DNA of 64,000 bases from an uncultured beta proteobacterium (GTDB lineage Bacteria > Pseudomonadota > Gammaproteobacteria > Burkholderiales > Thiobacillaceae), in NCBI GenBank assembly GCA_942493085.1, contig OW818664.1, forward strand, positions 1,027,709-1,091,708. The letters run 5' to 3'. The notes beneath the pieces are model-generated. The model searched no databases. It had not been told where the DNA came from and was given only the letters and a program-made list of their open reading frames with translations. The translations under genes and the position numbers were made by a program. Below are positions 2,912 through 35,829 of this stretch, piece by piece; positions within the stretch are counted from its first letter, which is position 1, and each line of letters starts with the position of its first letter.

Positions 2912-4284
2912 GCGTGCCGGCCTGGTTTGCCCGCAGCGTCTTTCACGTGCAGGAAGCGGCGATGCATCGTCCCACCTTTGCCATGCTGGCCGAACTCGAT
3001 CGCACGCAATGGCTGTCGCCTGAGGGCATGGCGGAACACCAGACCCGACAGCTCAACGGGCTGTTGCAAACGGCACTGTCTCACAGCCCCTGGCATGCCG
3101 GCCGCTTGTGTGCGGCCGGGCTGGCGGAAGTGGTCAGGGATGGGGCGGTGACGCTGGCTGACCTGGCGCGTCTGCCGACCATGAACAAACGCGACGCGCG
3201 TGACAACGTCGAGCAGCTGGTGTGGCGCGCGGCACCGGGTGGAGTGTTCAAGTACACCACCGGCGGTTCCAGCGGCGAGCCGCTGATTTTTTATTTTGGC
3301 CGCCCGCGCCAGGCCGCTGATGCCGCCGGCCGTCTGCGCGCGCGCCGCTGGTGGGGTGTGCAGCCGGGCGAACGCGAGGTGTACCTGTGGGGGGCGCCGG
3401 TGGAGTTGAACAAGACCGATCGCATCAAGACCCTGCGCGACCGCCTGGTGAATCAATTGCTGCTGAATGCTTTCGAGATGTCGCCCGCGCGCATGGACGA
3501 TTATCTGGTGTCGCTCCAGGTGTGGAACCCGAAGGCGGTCTATGGCTATGCCAGCAGCCTGGCGCTGCTGGCGGCGCACGCCGAGTCGCGCGGCATACGG
3601 CCGAAGCTGTCCGCACTGCGCGTGGTGAGCGCCACCGGCGAGCCGCTGTTTCCGCATCAGCGCGAACTCATCGAGCGGGTGTTCGGTGTGCCGGTCTCGA
3701 TCGAATACGGCGCCCGCGATGCCGGTCTGATGGCGCTGCAATCGCCGGATGGCACCCTGCTGCAAATGAGCGAGACGCACCTCATCGAGGTGCTCGACGA
3801 TGTCGGCAACCAGGTGGAAGAAGGCGAGGCGGTGATCACCAGCCTGGTGTCCGAAGCGCAGCCTTTCATACGCTACCGAACCGGTGACGTGGTCCGGCGT
3901 TCGGGGAAAGCCGATCCCGGCGGTCGCGGTCTCGAGGTGCTGGATGCCGTCATCGGGCGGCAAACAGATTTCATTGTCGCTGCCGATGGACGCATCATGC
4001 ATGCGCTCGCGGTGATCTATGTGCTGCGCGCGATTCCCGGCGTGGGCCAGTTCAAGCTGATCCAGCACGCGGTCGACCGCATGGAAGTGCAGGTGGTGCC
4101 GGACGCGCGCTGGAATGACGACGCTCGTACAGCTGTCATCCAGGGGCTGCGTGCGCGCCTCGGTCCGGCGCTGAATGTCGACCTGAAACTGCAGGATGCC
4201 ATTGCCCCTGAAGCCTCGGGCAAGCACCGTTATGTCGTCAGCCATGTTCCCATGCAGGGCGGGCTGACGCAGGCCATTGCATGA
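2908..4284 (+). CDS. CapK / phenylacetate-CoA-ligase-like adenylate-forming enzyme
   Basis: ATGA overlap with the upstream stop (ATG 2908; the tracked ORF start 2857 is probably an extension). AMP-binding motif FKYTTGGSSGEPL. Size and layout are typical of the CapK/PaaK/F390-synthetase-like family found in capsule/EPS loci. Confidence 0.8.
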   Translation: MSVPAWFARSVFHVQEAAMHRPTFAMLAELDRTQWLSPEGMAEHQTRQLNGLLQTALSHSPWHAGRLCAAGLAEVVRDGAVTLADLARLPTMNKRDARDNVEQLVWRAAPGGVFKYTTGGSSGEPLIFYFGRPRQAADAAGRLRARRWWGVQPGEREVYLWGAPVELNKTDRIKTLRDRLVNQLLLNAFEMSPARMDDYLVSLQVWNPKAVYGYASSLALLAAHAESRGIRPKLSALRVVSATGEPLFPHQRELIERVFGVPVSIEYGARDAGLMALQSPDGTLLQMSETHLIEVLDDVGNQVEEGEAVITSLVSEAQPFIRYRTGDVVRRSGKADPGGRGLEVLDAVIGRQTDFIVAADGRIMHALAVIYVLRAIPGVGQFKLIQHAVDRMEVQVVPDARWNDDARTAVIQGLRARLGPALNVDLKLQDAIAPEASGKHRYVVSHVPMQGGLTQAIA

Positions 4285-5399
4285 GTACCCTCACCATGAA
4301 ACCCTCCGGTTTGTTCGATGCGACGATCCACCACAAACCCTGGCGCCCGAGCCATCTGCGCTGGGTGATGCAGGATCTGGCCGGCGTTGCGCGCCAGCCT
4401 GAACAGGATCATCGCACCCATTTGCGCGCCACCCTGGAATGGGTGTGCCGTGCCCAGGATGCGTGCCGCAGTTCGGCTGACAGCGGCTGCGTGGCCGCCG
4501 GCTTCCGCTTCGGAATGGGCTGGATGCCCGCGAGCACCGACATCACCGGCCGGATGATCGAAACCCTGCTGCCTGCAGCGGATTATCTGGCGTGGCCGGT
4601 TCTCGCGGATCGTGCCCATGCCATGCTCGATGCGCTGCTGGTGCAAGCCGATGATGCCAGCGCGGGGCGCATTCACGGCCTGATTGCCGGCCATGTGCAG
4701 TTGGGTCACGGCGAGAGCCTGACGCGTGCTGTACAGGGCGCCCGCGCGCTTGCCGAGGCGCCCATGACCACCGCGGCCCAGCATGTGCAGGCCGCCCATG
4801 CGCTGGCGGCGGCGGGCGTCCTTGCGGGGGCGTCCGATCTGCTCGATGCGGCGCGCCGTCATCTGGAGTGTGCGCTCGCGCAGCAAACGCCGTGTGGCTG
4901 GTTTCCGGGCTCAGCCGGGCCGGCATCAAGTGGGGCACTGGCGGGCATCCTGCGCAGCCTGATCGAAACAGCCCGGCTGCTGGACGACCCGCGCGCCTGG
5001 CGGGCGGCCATGAGGACGGGACACGGGTTGCGCGGCCTGTTGCGCGAGGACCGCGGATTGGCGGGGGCGTTCGACGACGGCTGGATGCCCGCTGCGTCGC
5101 ACGCCGACCTTGCCGGCCTGACGCAACTGGCGGCGTGCTTCCTGCGTCTGGCACAACTGACGCAGGAAGCCGGTTGGCGCGACGCGGCATGGCGCGCGCT
5201 GGCCTGGATCAAGCGCAACCAGCGCACGGATGGGGACGACCTCGCGCTGCGCGATGCCCTGCCTGGAGCCGTGCCGATCTGGGCGGGCCCCGCTGCGTTC
5301 AGTTTTGATACCCTGGCAGCCAAACACTTTGCAGATGCCCTGATGATGGATATGGTGGGCATTGCCATTCCCCCTGACGCGCAGGAGACACCCAGATGA
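4281..5399 (+). CDS. Hypothetical protein, Ala/Leu-rich, function unknown (possibly alpha/alpha-toroid-like)
   Basis: ATGA overlaps at both ends (4281-4284, 5396-5399) tie it to its neighbours. I could assign no diagnostic motif. Confidence 0.6.
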   Translation: MSTLTMKPSGLFDATIHHKPWRPSHLRWVMQDLAGVARQPEQDHRTHLRATLEWVCRAQDACRSSADSGCVAAGFRFGMGWMPASTDITGRMIETLLPAADYLAWPVLADRAHAMLDALLVQADDASAGRIHGLIAGHVQLGHGESLTRAVQGARALAEAPMTTAAQHVQAAHALAAAGVLAGASDLLDAARRHLECALAQQTPCGWFPGSAGPASSGALAGILRSLIETARLLDDPRAWRAAMRTGHGLRGLLREDRGLAGAFDDGWMPAASHADLAGLTQLAACFLRLAQLTQEAGWRDAAWRALAWIKRNQRTDGDDLALRDALPGAVPIWAGPAAFSFDTLAAKHFADALMMDMVGIAIPPDAQETPR

Positions 5400-6700
5400 G
5401 AGACCTGCTGGTCACCGCCATTGTTTTCGGTGTACTGCCCTTCATTTTCAAGCGGCCGTGGATTGGCATCCTGCTGTGGTGCTGGCTGGGCTACATGAAT
5501 CCGCACCGGCAGACATGGGGCTTCGCCTACGATTTTCCGTTTGCCTCGATCTGCGCCGTCGTCACTATCGTCGCCTTCCTGTTCTCGAGGGAGAAAAAGG
5601 AAATGGTCTGGACGCGGGAAACGGTATTGCTGCTGATGTTTATCGGCTGGATGCTCGTCACCACCCTGTTTTCTTTTTACCCGGATCATGCCTGGCTGCA
5701 GTGGAACAAGGTCTGGAAGATACAGCTGATGGTTTTTCTTACGGCCATGATCATCAAGGAACGCCAGCATCTGCACTGGATGATCTGGATCATCGCCTTG
5801 TCGCTGGGTTATTACGGGGTCAAGGGTGGCATTTTTACCATCGTCCATGGCGGGCAGTTCAGGGTCCAGGGACCGGCAGGAACGTTCTTTGGGGGAAACA
5901 ACGAAATGGCGCTGGTGCTGGCGATGCTCGTTCCACTCATTCGTTATCTGCATCTGCAGGAACCCCGGAAATGGATCCGCCTGGGGTTGGCATCCGCCAT
6001 GGTGCTGTCGGGGGTCGCCGCCATCGGTAGCCAGTCGCGTGGCGGAATGCTGGCGATGGCCGCCATGGGCCTGTTCCTGTGGCTCAAGAGCCGTCACAAG
6101 CTCGTCACCGGCCTTTACATGGTCGTTGCGGTTGCGATCACGGCTGCGGTGATGCCCCAGGAATGGTATGACCGCATGGATAGCATCAAGAACTACCAGC
6201 AGGACGAGTCGGCGCTGGGACGCATCAATGCCTGGCACACTTCATTCAATGTGGCAAAGGACCGGGTCACCGGCGGCGGCTTTGAAATGTTCCAGGCCCG
6301 GACATTCCGCCAGTACGCACCCGAGCCTTTCCGGGTGCACGACGTCCACAGCATTTATTTCGAGGTGTTGGGGGAACACGGCTTTATCGGGCTCGGCATG
6401 TTCCTGCTGCTTGCGGTATTTGCCTGGCTGCGTGCCAACCAGGTGATACGCGTGTGCAAGAACGATCCGGAGAAGAAATGGGCAGCCGACCTGGCGGCGA
6501 TGATCCAGGTCAGCCTGATCGGCTACGGCACCGGCGGCGCCTTCCTCGGCCTGGCGTATTTTGACCTGACCTATCATTTGATGATTGTCCTGGTGCTGAC
6601 CGCCAAATTCTCCGGCGTTCTGGACAAACAGCTGCTGCAAACTACGCGGCAAGTGTCGGACAAGGCCCTGCCGCATCCTTCTGCACGCTGGGATCGATAG
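5396..6700 (+). CDS. O-antigen ligase / Wzy-like polytopic membrane protein (exosortase-A-associated putative O-glycosylation ligase type)
   Basis: About 10-12 hydrophobic segments. N-terminus MRDLLVTAIVFGVLPFIFKRPWIGILLWCWLGYMNPH; Wzy_C-like region GSQSRGGMLAMAAMGLFLWL. Matches my memory of the TIGR03097-type family. Confidence 0.85.
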   Translation: MRDLLVTAIVFGVLPFIFKRPWIGILLWCWLGYMNPHRQTWGFAYDFPFASICAVVTIVAFLFSREKKEMVWTRETVLLLMFIGWMLVTTLFSFYPDHAWLQWNKVWKIQLMVFLTAMIIKERQHLHWMIWIIALSLGYYGVKGGIFTIVHGGQFRVQGPAGTFFGGNNEMALVLAMLVPLIRYLHLQEPRKWIRLGLASAMVLSGVAAIGSQSRGGMLAMAAMGLFLWLKSRHKLVTGLYMVVAVAITAAVMPQEWYDRMDSIKNYQQDESALGRINAWHTSFNVAKDRVTGGGFEMFQARTFRQYAPEPFRVHDVHSIYFEVLGEHGFIGLGMFLLLAVFAWLRANQVIRVCKNDPEKKWAADLAAMIQVSLIGYGTGGAFLGLAYFDLTYHLMIVLVLTAKFSGVLDKQLLQTTRQVSDKALPHPSARWDR

Positions 6701-6751
6701 CTTTGAGCTGCCACTGGCGGTACGCAGGGCTCCGACTTTCGGAGGATGAGC

Positions 6752-8002
6752 ATGTTTGTGTTGCGATCATGGCCGCCGACCCGAAATCCAGCCCGGCATC
6801 GGATCAGGTGCGGTGTTTTTCTCGTGGTTCCCCTGCTGGGACTTGCCGCTGGCCTGCTGTTTTCGCAGCATGGCGCTGCCGAGGTGGGCGCGGGTGCCCA
6901 GCCCAAAGCGGTGGCATCCACGGGACGCGTGCTGAATCCGCGTCTGCTCGCGCTCGCGCCCAACACCTGGAGCCGGCTTGCTCAGCCCCAGCAGGCCGAC
7001 TGGCGTCGCCAAACCCATGCCGGGATCGCCTACGATTCGAAGCGTGGCACCCTCCTGGTATTCGGCTCCAACACCCACGGTCTCGACTGGGACAACGAAG
7101 TCCACGAATTCGACCCAGTGACTGCGCACTGGGAGACCCACTACCCGCGCGCACCTAAGGCAAGCTACCGTACCGATGCAGACGGCCGTGCCATCGCCGG
7201 CACCGATCGCCTGCTGCCATGGGCCATGCATACCTATGACAACATTGTCTACGATCCCGCGCTCGATGCCCTCATCGTCAGCGCGCTGCCGGAGCACAAT
7301 CCGATCCGGAAAAACGTGCCCGAAGCGACCATCCACCCTACCTGGATCTACGACCTGAAAACGCACCAGTGGCGCATCTTCGAAAACAAGGACAAGCCCT
7401 ACCCGAAGTTTTTTGCCGCCGCGTCTGCCTACGATCCCGACCGTGATGTCATCGCCGCCTACAAGTGGGGCATGTGGGAGATCGGTCCCGATCGCGACGC
7501 GTGGAAAAGGGCCAGCCGGGAAAGCCATCACGAAATTCACTACACCATGGACTACGATGCCCGGCACAGGAAATTCGTGGTCTTCGGCGACTATCGCAAC
7601 AGCGATGCAGTATGGGCCTATACGCCGGGCGCGCGCGCTGGTGACCCGGGGACGTGGGAAAAAATGCCGCCTCAGGAAGGCGCATCCTGCCCGCCCGGCC
7701 AGCATTTTCCCGTTGCCTACGACAGCGGGCACGGCGTCTTCCTGCTGGTGGTGGACAACACCCCGTTCGTCGAGAATAAGAAGGGGCGCCGCAAACGAGC
7801 GGGACGCGCCCGGTCGAGCAGCAGCTTCGTCTACGACCTCGGCAGCAACCGCTGCGTCCGCTTGCCCGATGCTGACCTGCCGCCGCTGGGGATGAACTAC
7901 ATGATGGTCTACGACCATTTCCACAAGGTCTTTCTGCTGGTCACGGGGAACCATACCAAGCCAGCTGCCGTATGGGCGCTCAGGCTGGACTGGCCGCTGT
8001 AG
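6752..8002 (+). CDS. Secreted six-blade Kelch-like beta-propeller protein, function unknown
   Basis: GGAGG (6741-6745) lies 6 nt before ATG 6752; the tracked start 6746 is the alternative. N-terminal hydrophobic signal (VFLVVPLLGLAAGLLF). Six repeats of the pattern xYDxxxxxhhhFG....W (AYDSKRGTLLVFG, VYDPALDALIVS, AYDPDRDVIAAY, DYDARHRKFVVFG, AYDSGHGVFLLVV, VYDHFHKVFLLVTG). Confidence 0.7.
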   Translation: MFVLRSWPPTRNPARHRIRCGVFLVVPLLGLAAGLLFSQHGAAEVGAGAQPKAVASTGRVLNPRLLALAPNTWSRLAQPQQADWRRQTHAGIAYDSKRGTLLVFGSNTHGLDWDNEVHEFDPVTAHWETHYPRAPKASYRTDADGRAIAGTDRLLPWAMHTYDNIVYDPALDALIVSALPEHNPIRKNVPEATIHPTWIYDLKTHQWRIFENKDKPYPKFFAAASAYDPDRDVIAAYKWGMWEIGPDRDAWKRASRESHHEIHYTMDYDARHRKFVVFGDYRNSDAVWAYTPGARAGDPGTWEKMPPQEGASCPPGQHFPVAYDSGHGVFLLVVDNTPFVENKKGRRKRAGRARSSSSFVYDLGSNRCVRLPDADLPPLGMNYMMVYDHFHKVFLLVTGNHTKPAAVWALRLDWPL

Positions 8003-8035
8003 CTCACGCGCGGCGCATTTGACTATGCTGTCAGT

Positions 8036-9307
8036 ATGTCTCGCCGCTACCCTTCGCCCGTTTTCTCGTCAGCCCGTCTGACTTGCCCGTTGCCGATCCG
8101 CCTGGCCCTGGTCCTGATTATCGTGTCGGCCGCCGCGTCTGCCGGCGACTGGCAGGCGGAACGCTGGCGCGTGGCTGATTTCACCGGCGCCCTCGGCGGC
8201 GGCCCTGACGGCGGGCCGGTGGCGCAGGCCGGCGGTGTGCCCTATGCGCTGTGCGGTGATGCAAATGGCAACCTGTTTCTTGCCCAAGGCCAGTTCATCG
8301 ACATCGTCACCCCGGACGGCATGCGCAGCCATCTCGCCGGTAGCGGCGAATACGGCTATCGCGACGGCGCCGCCCATCAGGCGGAGTTCCGCCTGGGATT
8401 GAATGCCTATTACGGCGCCCACAACCTGGCCTGCGGCCCTGATGGTTCGGTGTTTGTTGCAGACGGCGGTAATCGACGCGTCCGGCGCATCCATCGGGCG
8501 CAGGGGCAGTGGCGGGTCGACAGCTGGGCGGGCGGCGGCGGGCGGCGGCTCGGTCCCGGAGAATCGGCGCCGCCGAAAGCGGTCGCCTTCAGCGGTACCC
8601 TCGCCGTCGCGGTGACACCGCAAGGTGAAGTCACCATCGCCGACAATTACGGAGCCTACCGCATGACGGCAGACGGCCGCGAGATCCGCTACCTGGCAAG
8701 GTGGCCGGCGTCCGTCTTCTACAGCAATGCCCGGCCCGGCAATCTCAACGTGATGATGGGAGACGCCGACCGTGCGGGCAACGTGTATTTTGTTTCACGC
8801 ACCCCCCATGCCGTCATCAGGGTGACGCCGGGGGGAAAGGTGCAGCATTATGCTGGGCGCGTGACCCGGGACAGGAAACAGCAGTTGGCGGGGGATGGCC
8901 CGCCGCTGGAAGCTTTTTTTAATACCCCGACCAGCATTGCCGCGCAACCGGACGGCTCCGCCATTTATGTGTGTGGCGGCGACGAATACGACATCCGCCG
9001 CATCCCCGCCGACGGGACCGGCACCACTGCGACGCTGATGCAGAACGGGCAGTGGTACCAGGCATCGGTGCATCCCAACAAGAGTCGCGGCCCTGCCGTG
9101 GTCAAGCCGGATGCGGAGGGGAAACTCAGACCGGACGGCGATCTCACTATCCTCATGGTGAGTCATCTGCTGGGGCGCGATGCGCAAGGCAATCTCTACG
9201 GTTCGCTCAATTCCTGGTCCGGGATGACCCAGCATGTCGAGGGCGAAGGCTTGCTGGGCACCCGCGTATTCCGCCTGCAGCGCCGCACGCCGGGCGGCAG
9301 CCCGTGA
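8036..9307 (+). CDS. Secreted NHL-repeat-like beta-propeller protein, function unknown
   Basis: Signal peptide (IRLALVLIIVSAAASAG). Repeated NHL-like units GNLFLAQGQFIDIV, GSVFVADGGNRRVRRI, GEVTIADNYGAYRM, GNVYFVSRTPHAVIRV, SAIYVCGGDEYDIRRI. Confidence 0.7.
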   Translation: MSRRYPSPVFSSARLTCPLPIRLALVLIIVSAAASAGDWQAERWRVADFTGALGGGPDGGPVAQAGGVPYALCGDANGNLFLAQGQFIDIVTPDGMRSHLAGSGEYGYRDGAAHQAEFRLGLNAYYGAHNLACGPDGSVFVADGGNRRVRRIHRAQGQWRVDSWAGGGGRRLGPGESAPPKAVAFSGTLAVAVTPQGEVTIADNYGAYRMTADGREIRYLARWPASVFYSNARPGNLNVMMGDADRAGNVYFVSRTPHAVIRVTPGGKVQHYAGRVTRDRKQQLAGDGPPLEAFFNTPTSIAAQPDGSAIYVCGGDEYDIRRIPADGTGTTATLMQNGQWYQASVHPNKSRGPAVVKPDAEGKLRPDGDLTILMVSHLLGRDAQGNLYGSLNSWSGMTQHVEGEGLLGTRVFRLQRRTPGGSP

Positions 9308-10587
9308 TTGCCCGCGCGCTGTGGGTGGCATGTCTTGTCCTTCTGCTCGGGGCCACCATGGCTACGCCGGTGCTTGTCGCGGGCGAAGCGGTTGTCGCCA
9401 TGCCCCTGGCGGGCGATGCGCGGCCCCAGTTGAACCCTGCAATCGCCCACGACGGCAAGGGCACCTATCTGGTGGTGTGGCAGCAGGGCCGGTTTTATCA
9501 CCAAAGCCAGAGCGCGGACATTCTCGCCGCCCGTATCGATGCCCGCGGGCGTGTGCTGGATCGCCAGCCCATTGTCGTCTGTAACGCCGAGGCGAGCCAG
9601 GAGCAGCCGCAGGTGGTCTTTTCCGCGGGGACGTTTCTGGTGGCCTGGCATGACCTCAGGAACGGCCGCGATTGGGACGTCTACGCTGCCCGCGTGAGTG
9701 CGGACGGCAAGGTGTTGGAACGCAACGGTTTTCTCGTTGCCGGGGGGGCAGGTAACCAGGCAAGCCCGGCTCTGGCAGCGGCAGACGACAGCTTCCTGGT
9801 GGTGTGGCAGCACTACGACCAGCACTACCGTTTGCAGGCCTCGTTGATTCCGGCGGCGGGTCCGGCCGCACCGGCCCAGCCGCTGCAATTTCGCGGCGAG
9901 CCCCTGTGGGGCGGTGATCTCGCGCTGGCCCGGGTCGGCGACGGCTGGCTGTTGTCGTGGAACGATGAAAAGTCCTGGTCGCTGTCCGGCGGGGCCAGCA
10001 CCATGATCACCCGGCATTTCGCCAAGCTGGCCGTCCGCAATGGCAAGATGGCGGTGCTGGACGTACAGCGCGCGCCCGCCATCCATGTCGGGCGCAGCGG
10101 CGGACGGTTTGCCGTCGGCGGCGGGCCGTCGGCACTCTACGCTGGCTGGGCCATCGTCGGGCGCGGCAATAGGGCCGCCACCGCGGTGCTGTTCGATTCC
10201 GATGCGTCCCCGATCAGGAATCCCAATCCGGAACAGGACAAACGGGCTTCCGGCTGGAACACGGATCGCATGATGACCCTTTTCAGCCTCGACGTTCCGG
10301 TGGACGGCCCGGTCGCAGCGACCTTCGGTCAGGGCATGTACCTGGCCGCGGCGCGCGAGGCCTATTCCGGCAAACCGACCGATCGCAACCGGCTGCTGGG
10401 CTCGCGTTTGACGCCCGCCGGCGTACGCATCGACAAGGCGTCCGCCTGGCCGGTGCTGCACGAGTCTCCGCACCGCATCGCCAATCCTGCTCTGGCGGGC
10501 GGAAGCCGGCATTTCCTGCTCGCCTTCGAGCAGGAGGATGCGGACGGTCGGCGCCAGATATGGACCAAAATCCTGAAAGCCGAATGA
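9304..10587 (+). CDS. Secreted repeat (propeller-like) protein, function unknown
   Basis: GTGA overlap with the upstream stop (GTG 9304); the tracked 5' extension from 8971 overlaps the previous gene. Signal peptide VIARALWVACLVLLLGATMA. Repeated units such as GTYLVVWQ...DILAARIDARGRVLD, GTFLVAWHD...DVYAARVSADGKVLE, DSFLVVWQHYD. Confidence 0.65.
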   Translation: MIARALWVACLVLLLGATMATPVLVAGEAVVAMPLAGDARPQLNPAIAHDGKGTYLVVWQQGRFYHQSQSADILAARIDARGRVLDRQPIVVCNAEASQEQPQVVFSAGTFLVAWHDLRNGRDWDVYAARVSADGKVLERNGFLVAGGAGNQASPALAAADDSFLVVWQHYDQHYRLQASLIPAAGPAAPAQPLQFRGEPLWGGDLALARVGDGWLLSWNDEKSWSLSGGASTMITRHFAKLAVRNGKMAVLDVQRAPAIHVGRSGGRFAVGGGPSALYAGWAIVGRGNRAATAVLFDSDASPIRNPNPEQDKRASGWNTDRMMTLFSLDVPVDGPVAATFGQGMYLAAAREAYSGKPTDRNRLLGSRLTPAGVRIDKASAWPVLHESPHRIANPALAGGSRHFLLAFEQEDADGRRQIWTKILKAE

Positions 10588-13500
10588 TGCCCATGCGTGC
10601 CCTGCTGCTGATCCTGACCCTGTTTTGCGCGGCACCGGCCGCGGCCGCACTGGACGGCGACAGCCGCGCCTACGCCTGGCGCAACGGCGTCTTCAACGTG
10701 CCGCTGAAGGTGCGCGACAATTCCGGCGTGGCGCGTCGCGGCTGGCCCGTCACCACGGGCGTGCCGCTGCCTTTGGGGGTGGTGCAGGAGGCCGGGCAGT
10801 TGCGCCTGACGGACGCAGCGGGACATGAGATTCCGGCCCAGTTCACTGTCCTCAGCCGCTACGGTGCGCGCGGCAACTCGCTGCGCTGGGTGCTGCTGGA
10901 TTTTCAGGTGGACATGCCGGCCAATGGCGAGGTGACGCTGCAACTGCGCAACGACCGTCCTGCCCAAGCGGTATCTGCACCGATCCGCATCGCCGAAACC
11001 GGTGAATCCATCACGGTGGACACCGGCGGCGTGATCGCCACGATTTCCCGGCGCGATGGCAGCTTACTGCAATCGGTCAGCGTGGGTGGCAAGCAGATAT
11101 TGAAAGCTGGCGACAACGATGGCCCGGCTTTGCGCGCCGGGGACACGCGGAAGATGGAACGCTTCCGCGGCCCGGCCTGGAACACCCACGGCTGGGAGAA
11201 GTCGCGCAGCCTGGAAAACATCCACATTGCCGAATCCGTTTATCGTGGCGGTCCGCCGCGTGAAGTGAAGGTCGAGATGGCTGCACCGCTGCGCAGCGTG
11301 GTGATGATCCGTGGACGCCACCTGCCGACCGGGCGCGGTGCAGGCATGCTCAAGTCGGGACTGTATGACTATGCGGTACGTCTGCATTTCTATCGCGGCC
11401 AGAGCTATATCAAGGTCGAGTACGCACTGGAAAACGCCGACCGCGCCCAGCCGCAGTCGAGCCACCTGTTCCGCGAGGCCAGCCTGAACCACAGCCTGAC
11501 GCTGGGTTCAGGCGCCGTCGTCAGCGGGGGCGGGCTGACGGCGCAGCCGGGTGCATCTGCCATGGCCTCGTTTCCCGTGACGGCGCGGCAGGAAGGCTGG
11601 CTGGTCCAACGCGCCGGCCGCAGCGAGAAAAAATATGGCCGCCAGGTGGTTCACGAGGGTGGCTACCAGATCGGGCCGGAGACGGAAGGCGCGCTTGTCA
11701 GCCCCGTGGCCGCGGGGGAGCGGGGGCGTTTCCTCGATGTTTCCGACGGCGAAAAAGGCGTGGGGATCGCGATGCGCTATCTGTGGGAGCAGGCGCCGCG
11801 CGCCATCAACCTGTCGCCGAAGCAGCTCAGGGTTGTGGTGCAGGCCGACAGCCCCGGCCATCGTTCCGATGCTGATCGCCCCGCCTACGATCTGGATCTT
11901 GGCGAGCGCAGTCTGCACGATGTGCTGTATTACTTCCATCTGGGCGATGCACGGCAGGCGCGGGTTCAGGATGTGGCCGAGGCTTTCGAATACCCGCTGT
12001 TTGCTCGCGCCCCGCCTGCCTGGTATTCCGACGTTGGCAACTGGTATTTCGAGATTGCCCGTGATCCGGGCAAGCCCGCGCGGGGCCTTGACTCGGATCA
12101 GCACTGGATGCCATCCAGAATTGGCGTCGGGCGGCATGGGGAAAGTCGCAGCTACAATTCAGGTGGTCACCACGACAGCCAAAGTTCCGGGTGGTTGAGC
12201 TTCCTGCGGACCGGCATGCTCACAGACCTGGAGCGCAATCTCGCGATCAGTCGCTGGAGCATCGCCCACAATCCCGGCTGGGCCTACCGTGATAATGTCA
12301 TCAGCTTCGGCAACGGGGCGGAGCGCTACCGTACCGTCGACCGTGCGCTGGACGAATGGAATCGACTGACCGCTTTCGGACCCAAGGATTTCTATTTGTG
12401 GCGCAGCGATCAGACCTACACCGAAAAGGCGCCCAAGGGCGAGGTGCTGAGGTACAAGGGCGGCCGCAGCTACCTGAACGGCTACAAGGTACTGCCGGAC
12501 ATGGAGCACTATGCCCTGTTCCGCCTGTTCGAGTACTACTACCTCACGGGCGACATGCGCTCGCTGGACGCCATCCACGGTTTCGTCAACTGGGACATCA
12601 ACTTCCAGCACCGCCACCTGTTCCAGGGCAGGATGCAGCCGCTTGCTGTCACCGACCTGTTCGAGCGCGATCCTGAGGCACTGCGGCGCGGCCACTACAG
12701 CCGGGTCTATGCCTGGATGCTGTTCACCAACCTCGCCGGCTACCACGCCACCGGCAGCCCGGTATACGACGAATTTGCCCGCTGGCAGATCCGCCGGGCG
12801 CTCGCTCTGCTGCGCCACCGTCATGGCCAGCTGACCAGTTGGGACGATTCGGTTTCCGGCATGCTCAGCACGCTCTTCGGGCGAACGGCGGCCGTGCCGC
12901 AGTCCTGGGCGCAGAGCTGGATGGAGGCCATGGGGACGATTGCGCTTCACGAAGCGTACAAGACCTTTGATGACGAACGCATCCTCGATGGAATATGGGG
13001 GCAGGCCGACTATTTCAGCCATCATGTGCTGTACTACCCGCAACTGGGCATGATCAACAACCGCACCGGGATGCCCAACAGGCCGCTGGGCCACGGCAAG
13101 GACCGCGGTGCCACGCTGACCCCGCAGCGCCACGACTGGGTGATCCAGGCCTGGCCCGTTCTCTACCATTACACCGGCTGGCCGGAGGTGGCCGAGCGTT
13201 ACCAGAATTTCGAGCGTGCGCGCAAGGACGCCTGGACGCAGGACGTGTTCCTGCAAACGGCCCATTGGGAACAGCAGAACGTCGCCAAGCGCTCGTCCCG
13301 CCCGCCGGACCCAATCACTGATCTGCGCGTCCTCCGCGCCGATCGTTCCGGCATCGCCCTGACCTGGACCAGTCCCCGCGATGACGGGCCCACGGGCCGG
13401 GCCGAGCGCTATTTCGTCAAATACAGCAGCAAGCCCATCGTCGAATTCGCCCCCACCGACAATCCAGCCCGGAACGGGGACAAGGCGCGCATTGTGCAGA

Positions 13501-13862
13501 ATGTCGAGGAACGGGTCTTGTCGCGTTCCAAAGGCAAACGTCTGAAAACCAGTATTAGTCCCGGCGAGGCAGGTACCGAGCCCAACGATGTGCAGCGTGT
13601 CCATCCGGACTGGAACCGGGTCAACGCATTCTGGATGGCCGAGCACGTGGCGGGCGAACCGGCGCCGGCGCCGGCCGGCAAGACCGAAACCTTCACGATC
13701 CGCGAATTGCGCCCGCACAACGGGTTTGGCGCTCCCACGCAACCCGGGGTGGAGAGCCTGCCTGCCGGCACCTACTACGTGGCGATCTGCTCGTGGGACG
13801 AAGACCGCAACCTGAGCCACCTGTCCAATGTGGTCAAGCTGCAGCTGGGAAAACAGGATTAA
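10584..13862 (+). CDS. Large secreted protein (about 1,090 aa) with a C-terminal fibronectin-type-III domain; possible polysaccharide-active enzyme
   Basis: ATGA overlap with the upstream stop (ATG 10584). Signal peptide MMPMRALLLILTLFCAAPAAAA. N-terminal beta-sandwich-like region (GWPVTTGVPLPLGVV...LRLTDAAGHEIPAQ...LRWVLLDFQVD), helical central region (FRLFEYYYLTGDMRSLDAIHGF), and FN3-like ITDLRVLRADRSGIALTWTSPRDDGPTGRAERYFVKYSSKPI. Confidence 0.75.
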   Translation: MMPMRALLLILTLFCAAPAAAALDGDSRAYAWRNGVFNVPLKVRDNSGVARRGWPVTTGVPLPLGVVQEAGQLRLTDAAGHEIPAQFTVLSRYGARGNSLRWVLLDFQVDMPANGEVTLQLRNDRPAQAVSAPIRIAETGESITVDTGGVIATISRRDGSLLQSVSVGGKQILKAGDNDGPALRAGDTRKMERFRGPAWNTHGWEKSRSLENIHIAESVYRGGPPREVKVEMAAPLRSVVMIRGRHLPTGRGAGMLKSGLYDYAVRLHFYRGQSYIKVEYALENADRAQPQSSHLFREASLNHSLTLGSGAVVSGGGLTAQPGASAMASFPVTARQEGWLVQRAGRSEKKYGRQVVHEGGYQIGPETEGALVSPVAAGERGRFLDVSDGEKGVGIAMRYLWEQAPRAINLSPKQLRVVVQADSPGHRSDADRPAYDLDLGERSLHDVLYYFHLGDARQARVQDVAEAFEYPLFARAPPAWYSDVGNWYFEIARDPGKPARGLDSDQHWMPSRIGVGRHGESRSYNSGGHHDSQSSGWLSFLRTGMLTDLERNLAISRWSIAHNPGWAYRDNVISFGNGAERYRTVDRALDEWNRLTAFGPKDFYLWRSDQTYTEKAPKGEVLRYKGGRSYLNGYKVLPDMEHYALFRLFEYYYLTGDMRSLDAIHGFVNWDINFQHRHLFQGRMQPLAVTDLFERDPEALRRGHYSRVYAWMLFTNLAGYHATGSPVYDEFARWQIRRALALLRHRHGQLTSWDDSVSGMLSTLFGRTAAVPQSWAQSWMEAMGTIALHEAYKTFDDERILDGIWGQADYFSHHVLYYPQLGMINNRTGMPNRPLGHGKDRGATLTPQRHDWVIQAWPVLYHYTGWPEVAERYQNFERARKDAWTQDVFLQTAHWEQQNVAKRSSRPPDPITDLRVLRADRSGIALTWTSPRDDGPTGRAERYFVKYSSKPIVEFAPTDNPARNGDKARIVQNVEERVLSRSKGKRLKTSISPGEAGTEPNDVQRVHPDWNRVNAFWMAEHVAGEPAPAPAGKTETFTIRELRPHNGFGAPTQPGVESLPAGTYYVAICSWDEDRNLSHLSNVVKLQLGKQD

Positions 13863-13888
13863 AGCCTGGTTGTATTGAAAAACGACAC

Positions 13889-15715
13889 CTAGTGTTCGTT
13901 GGCCTGCAGCCACTGCTCCAGCATCATCGTCACCCAGATCATTACGCCGTAGTAACTGGCGTGCGGGCCACGTTGCATGGCCAGCATGTGATCGAGATAG
14001 GCTGGTTCGATCCAGCCGCGCTGCTTGAAGTCCGACAGGCTGTCGCCGACGAGATCGCCAAGCGGGGCGTATTGGGTGTTCCATACACCGAACGGTAGGC
14101 CGAAGCCATGTTTGCTCTTGTTAATGATCTTTTCGGGTAGCAGGTCTCGCAGCGCCTCCTTGAAGAACCAGCGCAGACTCTGGCCGCGCACTTTGTAGTC
14201 GACCGGCAGGTGGTTGGCGAAGGCGACCATGCGGTCGTCGAGCAGCGGATAGTGCACTTCGATGCCGGCCGCCTCGGTCATCGTACCGACCTTGCGCAGG
14301 TCGTTGTCGGCCAGGGTGAACTTCAGGTCCAGGTGCATCATGCGGTTGATGTAATGGTCCGATGCAGTGCGTTCATATACTTCGGTGAGCGCGGCATCTG
14401 TGATCGAAGGATCGATGGCACAATGGAAATCAGGGGTAAGGATCTGATCGAGTGGCGTACGGTGCATGAAATTGTAGCTTTCCAGACGCAACGGCAGCCC
14501 CATGTTCGCCTGGCGCACGTAGCTTTTCAGTTTGGCCAGTGGGAAGCGGTCGGATAATCCGGGCAAATGCACGATCGGCTCAACGATGCCGCGCCGGATG
14601 GACGTCGGTAGGCGAAAGTAGCTCTCGAATAGTTTTTGCTTGGCGTAGCGCACATTGCCGCCGAAGATTTCGTCGCCACCGTCACCGGCGAACATGTTCT
14701 GGAATCCAGCTTCCTGCGCAGCCTTGGCGCAGAAATAGGCTGGCACCGCCGAAGCATTGCCGAACGGCTCGTCATATTCACGCGCGATGACGGGAATTGC
14801 CGTCACGATGTCGGCGGGCTTTAGGTAATACTCATGGCTGCGGCTGCCGTAGCGTTCGGCGGCGCAGCGTGCGTATTCCATTTCATCGAAACCCTCGGCG
14901 TCGAAACCGATGGAAAACGTGTCGACCGGCGCACCGCGCGCAGCGGTGAGCGCGCCGACTACGGTGGAACTGTCGGTGCCGCCAGAGAGAAAGGCCGCTG
15001 TAGCGGGCGCATCGGCAGCGCGTACGGACTGGTCCAGTATTTCTCGAAACAGGCGGCGCTGTTCTTCGAAACCGGTTTGGATCGGAACGTAGTCGGCTTG
15101 CCAGTAGAAATCAACGTTGATTTGGCCATTGCTCAGGGTAACGATCTGTCCCGGAAGCAGTTTGTGGATGCCCTGGTACAGACTGCGCGGCGCGGGGATG
15201 GTATGGAAATACAGGTAGTCGTATATCGCCTGGGGGTCGATGGTGCGACCTACGGCAGGATGGGCCGCCACGTTTTGTACGCTGCTGCCGAATATCAGAT
15301 TGCCGCCGCGATAGGCATAACTCAACCGTTCGGTACCCATGCGATCCAGCACCAGGCAGGCTTTTTTCTTGAGGGAATCGAGCACGGCAAAGGCGAAATT
15401 ACCGTGCATCAGGGTGGGCAGTTTTTCACCGAAACGCATCCAGCCATGTGCGAGGGCCACGACCTGGCCTTGATCGCGGGCAATCAAGGCCAGGTCGTCA
15501 TCCAGAAACCGTGGCCGGCCGTATAAGGTGGCTGCAAGGCCGTTCTCCACATGGATGTCGGCTTTGCCGAAGCGTGAGGTTGCGGCCACGCCGAGGATCT
15601 GGCTGCTGTGTGCATGCAGCAGATTGTCTGTTGGCATATGAGCCGCTTGGCCCATATGCCTGATCAGGTCCTGATGTGCGCCGTGCTCGCCGAGCCAGCC
15701 AAAAATACCATCCAT
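13889..15715 (-). CDS. Asparagine synthetase (AsnB)-like amidotransferase homologue 1, lacking the N-terminal Cys nucleophile
   Basis: PP-loop AFLSGGTDSSTVVG and AsnB-type synthetase domain. The N-terminus reads MDGIFGW (codon 2 is GAT, checked on the DNA) where class-II amidotransferases have Cys2. Confidence 0.9.
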   Translation of the reverse strand: MDGIFGWLGEHGAHQDLIRHMGQAAHMPTDNLLHAHSSQILGVAATSRFGKADIHVENGLAATLYGRPRFLDDDLALIARDQGQVVALAHGWMRFGEKLPTLMHGNFAFAVLDSLKKKACLVLDRMGTERLSYAYRGGNLIFGSSVQNVAAHPAVGRTIDPQAIYDYLYFHTIPAPRSLYQGIHKLLPGQIVTLSNGQINVDFYWQADYVPIQTGFEEQRRLFREILDQSVRAADAPATAAFLSGGTDSSTVVGALTAARGAPVDTFSIGFDAEGFDEMEYARCAAERYGSRSHEYYLKPADIVTAIPVIAREYDEPFGNASAVPAYFCAKAAQEAGFQNMFAGDGGDEIFGGNVRYAKQKLFESYFRLPTSIRRGIVEPIVHLPGLSDRFPLAKLKSYVRQANMGLPLRLESYNFMHRTPLDQILTPDFHCAIDPSITDAALTEVYERTASDHYINRMMHLDLKFTLADNDLRKVGTMTEAAGIEVHYPLLDDRMVAFANHLPVDYKVRGQSLRWFFKEALRDLLPEKIINKSKHGFGLPFGVWNTQYAPLGDLVGDSLSDFKQRGWIEPAYLDHMLAMQRGPHASYYGVMIWVTMMLEQWLQANEH

Positions 15716-15744
15716 GGTGTGTTGTGCCAGTGTGATGCGGGATA

Positions 15745-16764
15745 ATGTCCGCCAATATAAACGAAGCTGCAGATTGGCACGAATCCTGTGCGTTCTGTCT
15801 CGACTGGATCAGGCATCAAATTGAAAACGGCAACCCGCGCATGAATTTGAGTGCATTTTTTGACAAAGTGACCAAGACGCTGGCGTATCACTCGCGCCGG
15901 CAGCTTCGACGCCTGCGTGAGATGTGCTGGGGTCTGTCACGCCGCCCAGCCAGCCGCCCCATCATTGTGGTGGGGTGTTCGCGTGCGGGTACCACGTTGG
16001 TCTATAAGACCTTGTCGGAATCGCGTGAAATCGGCAGTCTGCAGCGTGAAACCCACGATTACTGGACCGACCTGCATCCGCCGGTCGACAAGCACTGGAA
16101 CACCCATGCGCTGGACGCGGCCGACGCCAGCGAGCGCGACCGCGACACCGTCAGCCGCTATTTCTTCAGCTGGACCGGCCGCCGTCGCTGGGTAGACAAG
16201 AATAACCAGAACGGCTTGTGCGTACCCTATCTGCAGGCGCTGTTTCCCGACGCTGTGTTCGTTTTCGTCAAGCGCAGCCCGGGCGACAACCTCAATTCGC
16301 TGATCGAAGGCTGGCGCAAACCTGACGAATTCGCCACCTGGTCGAACGACCTGCCGGCGACGGTGGCGGTGGAAAACGGCACCCTGTCCCAGTGGTGTTT
16401 CTTCCTCGCCGAGGGTTGGCGCGAGTATGTGAATGCGCCAGTCGAGGACGTCGCCGCATTTCAGTATGTCGCCATCAACCAGGCTATCCTCGATGCCAAA
16501 GCCAGTGTGCCTGCCGGGCAATGGGTCGAGGTGTTCTACGAAGACTTTCTGCGCGATCCGGCCACCACCTTTCGGCAGATATTTGAGGGTTGTGGCTTGA
16601 GCTTCGACTCGCGTTTGCAGATGCATTGCGCCGGGGTGCTCGATATCCCTTACAACGCCTTTTCCGAAATCCGCCTGGATAAATGGAAGGACGGCCACAA
16701 CCGGGAAAAAATTGAGCGCGTGTTGCCCCAGGTGGCAGACGTGGCGGCAAGGATGGGCTATTGA
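15745..16764 (+). CDS. Sulfotransferase family protein (paralogue 2)
   Basis: 5'-PSB-like IIVVGCSRAGTTLVYKTL; 3'-PB-like VFVKRSPGDNLNSLI. The alternative start ATG 15841 (MNLSAFF) would leave a more plausible divergent intergenic region. Confidence 0.8.
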   Translation: MSANINEAADWHESCAFCLDWIRHQIENGNPRMNLSAFFDKVTKTLAYHSRRQLRRLREMCWGLSRRPASRPIIVVGCSRAGTTLVYKTLSESREIGSLQRETHDYWTDLHPPVDKHWNTHALDAADASERDRDTVSRYFFSWTGRRRWVDKNNQNGLCVPYLQALFPDAVFVFVKRSPGDNLNSLIEGWRKPDEFATWSNDLPATVAVENGTLSQWCFFLAEGWREYVNAPVEDVAAFQYVAINQAILDAKASVPAGQWVEVFYEDFLRDPATTFRQIFEGCGLSFDSRLQMHCAGVLDIPYNAFSEIRLDKWKDGHNREKIERVLPQVADVAARMGY

Positions 16765-16876: not shown

Positions 16877-18070
16877 GTGACGATGTTAGTGCTTGCTCTT
16901 GCCGCCATCCTGCTTCTGTGGACAGCCGTCCTGCTCGCTTTTGCCGGCCCGCTCGCAGCGCGCTGGCGTGAGCCAGTACTGCGTCAGCCCGTTTTGATCA
17001 TCGAGAGCGATGATTGGGGTGCAGGTCCGCTGGCACAGGCCGACGCGTTGAACCGGCTGTCTGCATTATTGCAGCGGGTGCGTGATCGCGGTGGTCATCC
17101 GGCCGTGATGTCGCTGGGTGTGGTGCTGGAAGTGCCGGACGGCAAACGAATCGCCGCGACCGGCGTGACCGAATACCATGCGTTGCCGCTTGCTGATGCG
17201 TGCTTTGACGATATACGTGCCGTGATGCGGTCTGGCATTGATGCAGGCGTGTTCGCGCCGCAACTGCATGGCCAATGCCACTACTGGCCGCCTGCAGTGA
17301 TGGATGCAGCAAAATCGGATGCCAGCGTGCGCGATTGGCTGACCGCCTCCGATCCTGTCGCTACCGAAAATTTGCCTTCGCCCCTGCAAAGCCGCTGGAT
17401 CGATGCATCCATGTTGCCGTCGCGCGTGCTGGCGCCCGAAGCGATCCGGCAGGCCGTCATTGCCGAGGCCGCATCCTATCAAGCAGCTTTTGGGAGCGCG
17501 CCACAGGTAGCAGTGGCCACCACTTTTGTTTGGAACGAGCTAGTCGAAGCTGGCTGGGCGCAGGCAGGGGTCGAGACCATCATTACGCCGGGGCACCGCG
17601 CCACCTGCCGCAATGCCGCCGGGCAGCCGGCCTGTGAGGATGCAACGATGCTAACGGGTGAACATTCACTCGCAGGGCAAACGTATCTGGTGCGCGATGT
17701 GTATTTTGAACCGGCGCTTGGACATACGCCGCAGCGTCTTGTGGATGGCTTGCTGGCGCGCACCCGGCAGGGACGCGCGTGTTTGGTAGAAACCCATCGC
17801 TTCAACTTTCTGCAGGCGCTGGACGCCAGTCTCGATGCTTTGGAAACGGGCTTGTGCGCTGCGCTGGCAGCCTGCTCCGACCTGCACTTCATTAGCCCAC
17901 TTGAATTGGCCCATGCGATCCAGAGCCGCGATCCGGCCCGGATCGAAACCCGGCTGATGCCGCGCTTCGTCGCCTGGCACGCACGTCTGGACGAGATCCC
18001 GCGTTTTCGCCGGGTGGCACAATTGAGTGGCTTGGCGCTGCCGCTGGCCTGGCTGGAGCGTGTGGCATGA
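16877..18070 (+). CDS. Hypothetical N-terminally membrane-anchored protein (tentatively YdjC/ChbG-like carbohydrate deacetylase-related)
   Basis: GTG 16877 or ATG 16883. N-terminal helix LVLALAAILLLWTAVLLAF followed by PVLIIESDDWGAGP, which resembles the (N/S)DDFG start of YdjC-type enzymes. The stop overlaps the next gene (ATGA at 18067). Confidence 0.55.
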   Translation: MTMLVLALAAILLLWTAVLLAFAGPLAARWREPVLRQPVLIIESDDWGAGPLAQADALNRLSALLQRVRDRGGHPAVMSLGVVLEVPDGKRIAATGVTEYHALPLADACFDDIRAVMRSGIDAGVFAPQLHGQCHYWPPAVMDAAKSDASVRDWLTASDPVATENLPSPLQSRWIDASMLPSRVLAPEAIRQAVIAEAASYQAAFGSAPQVAVATTFVWNELVEAGWAQAGVETIITPGHRATCRNAAGQPACEDATMLTGEHSLAGQTYLVRDVYFEPALGHTPQRLVDGLLARTRQGRACLVETHRFNFLQALDASLDALETGLCAALAACSDLHFISPLELAHAIQSRDPARIETRLMPRFVAWHARLDEIPRFRRVAQLSGLALPLAWLERVA

Positions 18071-25800: not shown

Positions 25801-25922
25801 GCGTTGGCCGCCACCAGAATCTGTACCGGCATGGCAGGCCGTTTTGCCGTGTTGAGCGAAGCCAGCACCCGCTCCAGCAGATCGGCCCGGTTGTGGGTGC
25901 AGATCAGGACAGTCAGTTGCAT
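22803..25922 (-). CDS. Fusion protein: GT2 glycosyltransferase + polytopic membrane region + sulfatase/alkaline-phosphatase-superfamily domain
   Basis: Start ATG 25922 (MQLTVLICTHNRADLLERVL), overlapping the upstream TGA by 1 nt. GT2 motifs FVDDDHRVDENYL and GGEDSEYVLR. At least 5 hydrophobic helices in the middle. C-terminal NILMVGSDTLRADRLG, VPCARTAPSLISMLTG, VVYSDHG. Confidence 0.8.
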   Translation of the reverse strand: MQLTVLICTHNRADLLERVLASLNTAKRPAMPVQILVAANACVDETVARMQAYQARQTELGWLPLRLIEVPTPGKSHALNRAIPEIDTELTAFVDDDHRVDENYLVAIEQAAKTWPDAGLYCGRILPDWDGSEPAWVHDEGTYRIYPLPVPRYDQDSQPKTITPEEGPIPGGGNLVVRRSVFELAGKFSTELGPHGHDLGGGEDSEYVLRAMMRGVRCQYAPDMVQHHYVDVERLKLGYLLKKGYQRTRSTSRILGNGRVPLFMWRKLAEYGFHSLFALSWAKRRFYWVRTAAALGEIQGRSESGHRGKHLALPPDRGMLQVEGLALLTATSGLLAWFASGETRWAGLLPALGVAGIGAAALLAKSLLDFSQTGPRIREEVLTHYQRYTLFALARLTAWTFMLMLFTGGAGVLLYFMLNTLLGVPWSRGLAFIAAILGVLGAFALQFIRKLRFNPGLLVASMHYRLSRLYRLWHWMTPTRISQLQLLGMGMIGLLLAASSWQLATENRVGDLIALWAATLFLAGTVTWAGWQPQARAPRKRPARSAGAPPNILMVGSDTLRADRLGALGYHRVLTPHIDRLADAGALFSNCYVPCARTAPSLISMLTGTWPHTHGVRDNYVDDENTQLKADALPTLLKQSGYRTAALSDWCGADMGKFSFGFDYTDLPEDQWNLKYLIRQGPKDLRLFISLFTHNRLGRMLLPELYYLGGVPLTQPLGKRARRLVSRLAESAQPFFLNVFYSTTHPPFASEWPWYTRFADPAYAGESKFAMARLTDPFEIIRRQGAPREEFDLDQIIDLYDGCVAEFDDEVGRMLAHLDTCGLAENTIVVVYSDHGMEFFEHDTWGQGNSAVGEASPRIPLVIHDPRLAPCGLVDTVVRSIDLAPTLLELIGAPSAAGMDGVSLVGCLKQTARCPELDAFNETGIWIADIPGMPDAHLRYPGLLELMEVPNRVSGTLTIKQEYSNAILAAKDRMIRHGRWKLTYQPLSSGELLQLFDVAADPMCKNNLVDLHPDITAMLWQRLNGWIGRIPDTPAKQRA

Positions 25923-26842: not shown

Positions 26843-26851
26843 GGTGATCGG

Positions 26852-28672: not shown

Positions 28673-28682
28673 GCTGCTGCGA

Positions 28683-29513: not shown

Positions 29514-29657
29514 TGTCGGTCATCCCCCTGAAGTCTGTTTTTCGAATTTGCCCGCCTTGAGGGCCTGTCGTGCTTGGGTATCGAACATCATACTTGAAGG
29601 TCTGTTTCTTCCACCCGCTGCGTGGAAAACACCTCCGGCGAGCAGCGTGCATTCAAA

Positions 29658-30602: not shown

Positions 30603-30609
30603 GGGTGGA

Positions 30610-31404: not shown

Positions 31405-31405
31405 C

Positions 31406-33675: not shown

Positions 33676-33987
33676 GCCGGGCCAGGTGTTCCACTCGGTC
33701 GGCTATTGCGGGTGTGTATTAAATGATTGGTGCTACCGGCAGTATGGCGTTGTTGGGTGGAAGGCTGTTTACCCGGCAACGACAGGGTGCGAACCGTGCG
33801 GAATGCGGCTGGAGAGGTGTTGAAGTGGTGTGGGATGGCGTTCATGCCCCGCTATTCTAATGGCCAAAGATGAATGCAGCCATGCGTCATGTGCCATGGG
33901 CGATGCAGTGTGCGGGACGTGCCTGTCTGCATCCTTCCTGCGTACGCCTGGAATCCGGGACAGCCAGAGGATTTGGGTTTTTCTGCC

Positions 33988-34551: not shown

Positions 34552-34557
34552 AGGCCA

Positions 34558-35686: not shown

Positions 35687-35829
35687 GCTATTTAAGATTG
35701 ATCTTTATGGTTTTCTTGCGTAACGATTCCTGCGAGGTTTGGCATTAAAACCCATATTATTTCGTATGTTCCACTATCTTGAGAGTGGCTAGAGGCCCAT
35801 ATTCCGCTGCGACTCATCCGGTTGTTGCA

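Follow-up and report, generated by a model that had tools for sequence, protein, structure and literature searches.

The stretch of DNA analysed here, hereafter the window, comprises 64,000 nucleotides (nt) of contig OW818664.1 from an uncultured beta proteobacterium of the Thiobacillaceae. Its exopolysaccharide (EPS) locus of the XrtA type contains a block of four consecutive genes, here called P1 to P4, for which we propose a common function. With moderate confidence, we take the four proteins for an accessory module which, in the periplasm or at the surface, processes the probably sulfated EPS of a Wzx-dependent pathway; the best explanation of the data does not make them partners of the exosortase/ligase system as such. 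The region is rich in G+C (58-66% in the window) and the closest relatives are found in Thiobacillus, Thiobacillaceae and Hydrogenophilales metagenome-assembled genomes (MAGs). The EpsH locus type has been confirmed in Thiobacillus denitrificans in a study that does not mention the four genes (Haft 2006; PMC1569441).

An earlier note on this DNA, made from the sequence alone, had described P4 (10584-13862, + strand, 1092 aa) as a giant FN3 protein. This label had to be given up, since the FN3-like part covers only residues ~905-1090 and stays below threshold, and the rest of the protein is homologous to PcRGLX, an exo-rhamnogalacturonan lyase of Penicillium chrysogenum belonging to polysaccharide lyase (PL) family 26 of CAZy (5xq3, 5xqg, 5xqj, 5xqo). 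Residues ~30-455 (10671-11948, +) are predicted to form two beta-sandwich domains like PcRGLX_1st and PcRGLX_2nd, with a short loop at residues 424-433; residues ~461-900 (11964-13283, +) would form a helical (alpha/alpha)-barrel-like domain, as indicated by secondary structure and the full-length PcRGLX match; and residues ~905-1090 (13296-13853, +) an FN3-like beta-sandwich with an inserted helix. The Pfam model PF21345 (PcRGLX_2nd) scored 33.0 bits on P4 with a cutoff of 23.5, the PcRGLX_1st and PcRGLX_3rd models gave no report for P4 of the window, and a precomputed PF19501 annotation is present in only a few P4 homologues. A profile of the P4 family found 5xq3 at E 2e-18 over P4 residues 55-562. 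When the AlphaFold2 model of P4 (pLDDT 89.9) was searched with Foldseek, PcRGLX chains were the only full-length matches (E 3e-20 to 8e-18 over ~1000 columns), so that the remote-homology comparison with PL families proposed by the earlier note ended in a match to PL26 at E ~1e-20. The helical domain also gave weak matches to cellobiose 2-epimerases (E 0.04-0.08), and a Foldseek comparison with viral structures returned one protein at E 2e-7 with no link to a depolymerase. For the C-terminus, FN3 domains in the PDB were matched at a sub-threshold E of 0.014-0.09, Pfam fn3 gave no hit, and the AlphaFold2 model has a beta-sandwich at residues 915-1088. Sequence profiles and the predicted model together identify residues ~30-900 of P4 as homologous to PcRGLX and the remainder as a small FN3-like tail.

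P4 and PcRGLX have the whole multi-domain architecture in common, with a helical barrel after the beta-sandwiches, at only 11-12% identity. Unlike PcRGLX, P4 is bacterial and predicted to be Sec-exported, it has the additional FN3-like domain at its C-terminus, and it is encoded in EPS biosynthesis loci and not in loci for pectin degradation. A further difference was found at the presumed active site. According to the PDB sequences, the substrate complex 5xqo differs from wild-type PcRGLX by a single Tyr to Phe change, located in 'LEITYEDWEPGF', and the Tyr concerned, which is presumed to be catalytic, is situated in a stretch of 26 residues that PcRGLX has in excess of the P4 family profile. 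At this place the P4 orthogroup has a short and variable loop ('PGHRSDADRP'), after which the motif 'RPxYDLDFGER' is conserved. The long Tyr-rich loop is retained in P0071, a distant homologue with more resemblance to PcRGLX. By sequence comparison, P4 is thus related to PL26 in fold yet fails the presumed catalytic-residue test, and because the Tyr loop is missing lyase chemistry should not be assumed. The 72 polar or aromatic residues that are invariant in the orthogroup still point to a specific site for catalysis or binding, and the reaction could be that of a lyase with another base, of a hydrolase or of an epimerase. That P4 is a lyase-derived modifier acting at the polymer level, for example a periplasmic uronyl C5-epimerase and not a depolymerase, strikes us as improbable. 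The C5 proton that it removes would be the one that a lyase abstracts, with the eliminating residue lost, and animal glucuronic acid C5-epimerases and dermatan sulfate epimerases, which have lyase-like folds, provide the analogy. If true, proteobacteria would have in this module a machinery that tailors a sulfated, glycosaminoglycan-like EPS after its polymerisation, with the His-rich propeller P1 and a P2-P3 scaffold taking part.

P1 (6752-8002, +, 416 aa) had been taken for a Kelch-like protein of six blades. Six 'YD...G' blade motifs can indeed be counted in the alignment, and the profile of the P1 family found the Kelch domain of LZTR1 at E 1.7e-3 and KLHDC2 at E 5e-3. However, the Kelch models of Pfam remained under their cutoff of 50 bits (PF24681 with 30.5 and PF24981 with 29.9 bits), and a single-sequence search of the PDB with P1 returned nothing. 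P1 is best described as a predicted exported, divergent Kelch-type beta-propeller. Across the family (19 sequences, down to 48% identity) 36 polar or aromatic residues are invariant, among them seven His (H89, H109, H118, H160, H182, H260 and H263 of P1). Such a conservation pattern seems more typical of an enzyme or a metal site than of a scaffold for interactions. Metal-assisted propeller lyases have a His cluster, of which that of P1 is reminiscent. In sequence and profile searches of the PDB neither P1 nor P3 was similar to any PL family.

The NHL-like repeats noted in P2 (8036-9307, +, 423 aa) proved to be homologous to solved NHL domains at E ~5e-15. P2 matched the teneurin-like NHL domains 9ifo (E 4.6e-15) and 9pt5 (~5e-15) in three stretches and other NHL domains more weakly; with Pfam it fell just short of the cutoffs for TEN_NHL (25.5 bits, cutoff 27.1) and NHL (18.4 bits, cutoff 20). 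On this homology P2 is identified as an NHL propeller, predicted to be exported, and in 14 orthologues conservation is mainly that of NHL structural motifs. For P3 (9304-10587, +, 427 aa), a predicted exported protein without a curated family, no match was found in Pfam, NCBIfam or the PDB sequences, and a P3 profile gave nothing meaningful against the PDB. Its AlphaFold2 model, calculated from a 36-sequence alignment, is a beta-propeller (pLDDT 90.5, pTM 0.90), as had been surmised from the repeats. Foldseek returned generic propellers only (sialidase, GH43, Kelch, ulvan lyase; TM ~0.5), and an assignment of P3 to a family by this means was dropped. The ulvan lyases Uly1 (7drq) and LOR107 (6byt) stood on a par with the other folds, and similarity to the propeller lyases (PL22 oligogalacturonate lyase, PL24 and PL25 ulvan lyases) was generic at 8-12% identity. 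Just nine polar residues of P3 are invariant, and each of these is one of the W/Q/D/R that recur in the blades.

The blade repeat of P3 was also followed beyond the EPS loci. It spans residues ~40-190 ('..LVVWQ....D(I/V)YA(A/Q)R....G', proteins P0197-P0345), and in a profile search 39,031 representative proteins matched it at E <= 1e-3. The top-scoring ones are mostly large proteins of 600-4,700 aa with several repeats (7-19 matched stretches), and three of the four large proteins scanned carry Ig/cadherin-like or cysteine-rich modules (disintegrin, ephrin-receptor-like). The repeat has no proper Pfam model and gives weak DUF3659 hits only.

The four genes are real and conserved, with orthologues of 40-90% identity across many genomes. 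They lie on the + strand as the earlier note had placed them, between a Wzy/ligase-like gene (5396-6700) and an AsnB-like gene (13889-15715). The start of P1 at 6752 was preferred over 6746 because a GGAGG (6741-6745) stands 6 nt upstream of this ATG. A gap of 33 nt separates P1 from P2, and the reported coupling of the last three genes is present as a GTGA at 9304-9307, in which the stop of P2 overlaps the start of P3, and an ATGA at 10584-10587, in which the stop of P3 overlaps the start of P4. The 4-nt overlaps among P2, P3 and P4 were also found in the distant lineages L001 (Thiohalobacter sp. IOR34), L003 and L062, and in L060 P2 and P3 overlap and P4 starts within a few nt. This recurrence suggests that P2, P3 and P4 are made stoichiometrically. 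A promoter and terminator scan found no promoter-like site at 5000-16000 and terminator-like sites no more often than in shuffled sequences; this outcome fits co-transcription with the upstream genes and proves nothing. The description of the module as uncharacterised was upheld: P1 to P4 are 'hypothetical' in all sources, apart from a homology-based name given to P4 homologues, 'exo-rhamnogalacturonan lyase family protein', which NCBI uses for one from Thiobacillus. An NCBIfam scan of P1 to P4 gave noise only.

Export was judged by a Kyte-Doolittle heuristic and not by SignalP. By this measure each protein has one hydrophobic segment, which is N-terminal, follows basic residues and reaches a mean of 2.7-2.9 over its best 12-mer, in accordance with the export-type N-termini described before. 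The segment is kept in 96 of 112 homologues of P1, 73 of 95 of P3 and 56 of 65 of P4, the three proteins for which homologues were scored. Textbook-like cleavage sites were seen in P2 (ASA before G) and P4 (AAA before A); P1 has a signal peptide or an N-terminal anchor and may be an uncleaved signal anchor. Lipoprotein export was ruled out, the N-termini being without a lipobox, and so was Tat export, a twin-arginine motif being absent. The same heuristic found no hydrophobic segment at any of the four C-termini (...RLDWPL, ...TPGGSP, ...ILKAE and ...LGKQD for P1 to P4), and none of the proteins is therefore a PEP-CTERM protein, as already stated in the earlier note. Neither an autotransporter part nor a secretion signal beyond Sec was found in P1 to P4.

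To describe the gene order we used a sample of ~30 loci recovered via P4, P3 and P1 homologues, and in this sample the block or parts of it recur across several lineages. The order ligase-P1-P2-P3-P4, followed by AsnB in part, is found in all Thiobacillaceae loci that are long enough. P1-P2-P3-P4 occur together in Thiohalobacter sp. IOR34, L062, L060 and L068, and in L067 with a sulfotransferase gene inserted after P1. Three Aromatoleum species and L017 have P2-P3-P4, and in Aromatoleum P1 is ~20 kb away, adjoining Wzx (L063). Altogether the P2-P3-P4 string is present in 10 Thiobacillaceae loci, three Aromatoleum species, Thiohalobacter and the MAG loci L017, L060, L062, L067 and L068. P1 and P4 alone are found in L002, L064 and L066, and pairs of P2-like and P3-like genes alone in Planctomycetota, Thermodesulfovibrionia and others (L061, L027, L029, L031, L048, L053, L054). 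Since each pair is found by itself, the block consists of two older gene pairs joined, P1 and P4 with enzyme-like conservation and P2 and P3 with scaffold-like conservation.

Two further features were seen near these genes. Just downstream of P4, L064 (15561-18254, 897 aa) and L066 (5838-8363, 841 aa) carry a large gene without a Pfam family, which may replace P2-P3 there. A set made up of a trypsin-like protease, ScmC, an NTP_transf_5 nucleotidyltransferase and a small gene (PqqD-like in L067) stands near the block in three unrelated lineages (L001, 839-6160; L067, 481-3566; L068, 17245-21584). In L068 an exosortase gene directly follows P4.

The idea that the proteins are processing or editing enzymes of the polymer gained support from the homology of P4 to a lyase and from the dense invariant polar and aromatic residues of P4 and P1 (72 and 36, as against the nine repeat-structural ones of P3). 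In the mechanism that we favour, assembly and sulfation of the repeat units would take place in the cytoplasm, Wzx would flip them, and polymerisation would follow; the polymer would then be the target of P1 to P4, exported by Sec to the periplasm or the cell surface. P4, with its PL26-related fold, and P1, a His-rich Kelch propeller with a possible metal site, would be the catalytic pair that cleaves or modifies the chain, be it for chain-length control, for clearing of mis-localised polymer or for release. The NHL propeller P2 and the repeat propeller P3 would be a binding or scaffold pair that holds or guides the chain, made in a fixed ratio with P4 through translational coupling.

It is less likely, if still worth considering, that P1 to P4 are structural matrix proteins or lectins, with the propellers binding the EPS and cross-linking it to the cell surface and P4 remodelling the matrix, a set that would work like the rbm cluster of Vibrio cholerae. 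P3 is almost devoid of invariant polar residues, its repeat is shared by ~39,000 representative proteins of which the top ones are mostly large, with Ig/cadherin-like or cysteine-rich modules in three of four scanned, P2 is conserved mainly in NHL structural motifs, and P4 has an FN3-like tail, all of which would suit such a role. However, the conservation of P1 and P4 is enzyme-like, and a stoichiometry coupled to an enzyme-like protein suits a complex better than bulk matrix proteins. Moreover, no PEP-CTERM, lipobox, autotransporter part or other signal beyond Sec was found, and a further export route would therefore be needed for the proteins to reach the matrix.

That the polymer handled by the module is sulfated is suggested by the surrounding genes. 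In the window locus at least three genes are clearly of the Sulfotransfer_3 type, and another gives a weak hit. One sulfotransferase gene (PF13469; 2066-2911, +) belongs to the same gene string as the block and another (PF13469; 15745-16764, +) lies just downstream of it. A cassette on the - strand (22803-33675) extends from Wzx to a GT2-sulfatase fusion. It consists of genes for Wzx (32206-33675), a Sulfotransfer_3 sulfotransferase (31406-32296), a polysaccharide deacetylase (30610-31404), a GT2 (29658-30638), the weak sulfotransferase hit (28683-29513), an AsnB-like protein (26852-28672; 66 bits with TIGR03108, cutoff 817), a second GT2 (25922-26842) and the fusion of 1133 aa (22803-26204). 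The cassette recurs in the window, L001, L014, L062, L063, L065 and L067. In Thiohalobacter, L062 and Aromatoleum it adjoins the block at 41-59% identity, and in Azoarcus sp. KH32C it is next to P1. In L067, as judged by Pfam only, Wzx, deacetylase and GT2 genes in a similar order come after the block. L064 and L066 are likewise rich in sulfotransferase genes, and the Azoarcus and Aromatoleum loci (L063, L065) adjoin genes for the synthesis of 3'-phosphoadenosine 5'-phosphosulfate (cysNC, cysD and cysQ) and for a sulfate symporter. Sulfotransferase genes in an XrtA-type EPS locus thus imply a sulfated exopolysaccharide in a Thiobacillus-type sulfur oxidiser, and we infer a cognate heteropolysaccharide that is sulfated and in part de-N-acetylated. 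When genes for rhamnose or uronate precursors were sought, only a generic NAD-dependent epimerase/dehydratase gene (37786-38754) was found. Descriptions of sulfated exopolysaccharides from bacteria concern mainly cyanobacteria and some few marine isolates (PMC8205485, PMC7356697, PMC11766843).

The gene immediately upstream of the block (5396-6700, +) encodes a Wzy_C-type protein of the TIGR03097 family, 'putative O-glycosylation ligase' (602 bits, cutoff 188), and the earlier note had tied the block to it and considered P1 to P4 as glycosylation substrates. Both claims lost their footing when the sampled loci were compared. The block does directly follow the ligase-like gene in all long-enough Thiobacillaceae loci, and in L064 a TIGR03097 homologue is again found within 10 kb, a Wzy_C/DUF5935 gene three genes upstream of P1/P4. 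However, direct adjacency is restricted to the Thiobacillaceae. In Aromatoleum P2-P4 lie ~5 kb from the ligase-like gene with five genes between, P1 being ~20 kb off, and in L001, L002, L060, L062, L066, L067 and L068 no ligase homologue occurs in the DNA around the block (searched up to 10 kb on each side where the contig allows). Among the locus proteins tested, in addition, no polytopic Wzy_C-type protein other than the product of 5396-6700 was found, and as the locus has Wzx, the TIGR03097 protein may simply be the polymerase. We consequently regard it as very improbable that P1 to P4 are dedicated substrates of this 'O-glycosylation ligase', and the view that TIGR03097 proteins glycosylate secreted proteins encoded nearby loses one of its apparent supports. 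The gap between the ligase-like gene and P1, ~40-130 nt in the other Thiobacillaceae loci, is taken up in L011 (T. denitrificans UBA4768 MAG, 6037-7396) by ~1.3 kb that match none of the searched window genes.

Several points weigh against a module for the processing of sulfated EPS. No EPS genes were found within 10 kb of the block in L060 or of the P1+P4 pair in L002, and the P4 orthogroup is without the Tyr-bearing 26-residue loop of PcRGLX. The Kelch assignment of P1 is weak, and its His cluster is read as a possible metal site by analogy only. Sec export of P1 to P4 is a heuristic call and polymer sulfation is deduced from gene content only. Folds and homologies, N-terminal export segments, gene coupling and synteny were observed, and the localisation of the module, complex formation, its substrate and its chemistry are all inferred. 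The loci L060 and L002, together with the catabolic exo-lyase nature of PcRGLX, the one relative of P4 that has been characterised, would also agree with a catabolic role, in which the module would break down acidic or sulfated glycans of foreign origin, as PcRGLX breaks down pectin, and its proximity to EPS genes would be incidental. We consider this improbable. Neither a sugar transporter gene nor a sugar-catabolic gene adjoins the block in any locus examined, the block is embedded in biosynthetic loci in most lineages, and its carriers include the Thiobacillaceae, a family known for autotrophic sulfur oxidisers.

The module has parallels in known systems. AlgL (PL5), PslG (GH39), PelA and BcsZ (GH8) are periplasmic glycan-cleaving enzymes encoded inside EPS operons. 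P4 resembles them as an exported protein with a glycan-cleaving fold that is apparently co-transcribed within an EPS gene string. It differs from them in that its fold family is unrelated, that it travels with three propellers and that the polymer is presumably Wzx-dependent and sulfated. By analogy, the role of the module would be chain-length control, clearing of stray polymer or release. In Vibrio cholerae, the rbm cluster lies between vps-I and vps-II and encodes secreted matrix proteins, namely RbmA (FnIII), RbmB (a putative lyase) and the propeller lectins RbmC and Bap1. In the window, too, exported propeller, FN3-like and lyase-like proteins are inserted in a polysaccharide locus, a likeness of architecture in which homology of sequence is not expected. 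That EPS loci encode exported glycan-processing proteins is already known. New are the two-pair module, its association with a sulfation cassette and a PL26-like protein without the presumed catalytic loop, none of which has been characterised.

Other observations concern the neighbouring genes. The AsnB-like gene 13889-15715 is on the - strand, convergent with P4, and scores 289 bits with TIGR03108 (cutoff 817). Its product begins with MDGIFG..., so that the nucleophile of class-II glutaminases, Cys2, is replaced by Asp, and it is therefore probably glutaminase-dead. The fusion protein of the cassette (22803-26204) combines a GT2, four predicted membrane segments and a domain of the sulfatase/alkaline-phosphatase superfamily, a topology that suggests a periplasmic transferase or esterase domain like that of LtaS or EptA. 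Counterparts of 51-56% identity occur in Aromatoleum and L062, where the fusion is split into two genes, and by Pfam Azoarcus sp. KH32C has the same domain fusion. Between Wzx and the next GT2 genes the EPS locus contains a degraded stretch (33700-35830) with a fragment of an IS5-like transposase (34753-35265, -) and a truncated GT2 gene (33988-34551, -). An IS30-family transposase gene (59551-60720, -; 300 bits) adjoins an open reading frame of 2060 aa (53420-59602, +). Two conserved genes of the EPS locus (4281-5399 and 16877-18070, both +) are without a Pfam or NCBIfam family; one of them, orf397, encodes a protein with one N-terminal hydrophobic segment that is 43% identical to the product of an Aromatoleum gene in the same relative position.

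The module goes with sulfotransferase-rich EPS loci, be they from sulfur oxidisers (Thiobacillaceae, Thiohalobacter), from degraders of aromatic compounds (Aromatoleum, Azoarcus) or from several uncultured lineages. To our knowledge, the enzymes for tailoring and turnover of sulfated bacterial exopolysaccharides are essentially unknown. The N-terminal part of P3 brings to notice a very widespread beta-propeller repeat without a curated family, and in the module as a whole there are concrete candidates for new families of enzymes that act on sulfated polysaccharides, with hosts that can be cultivated.

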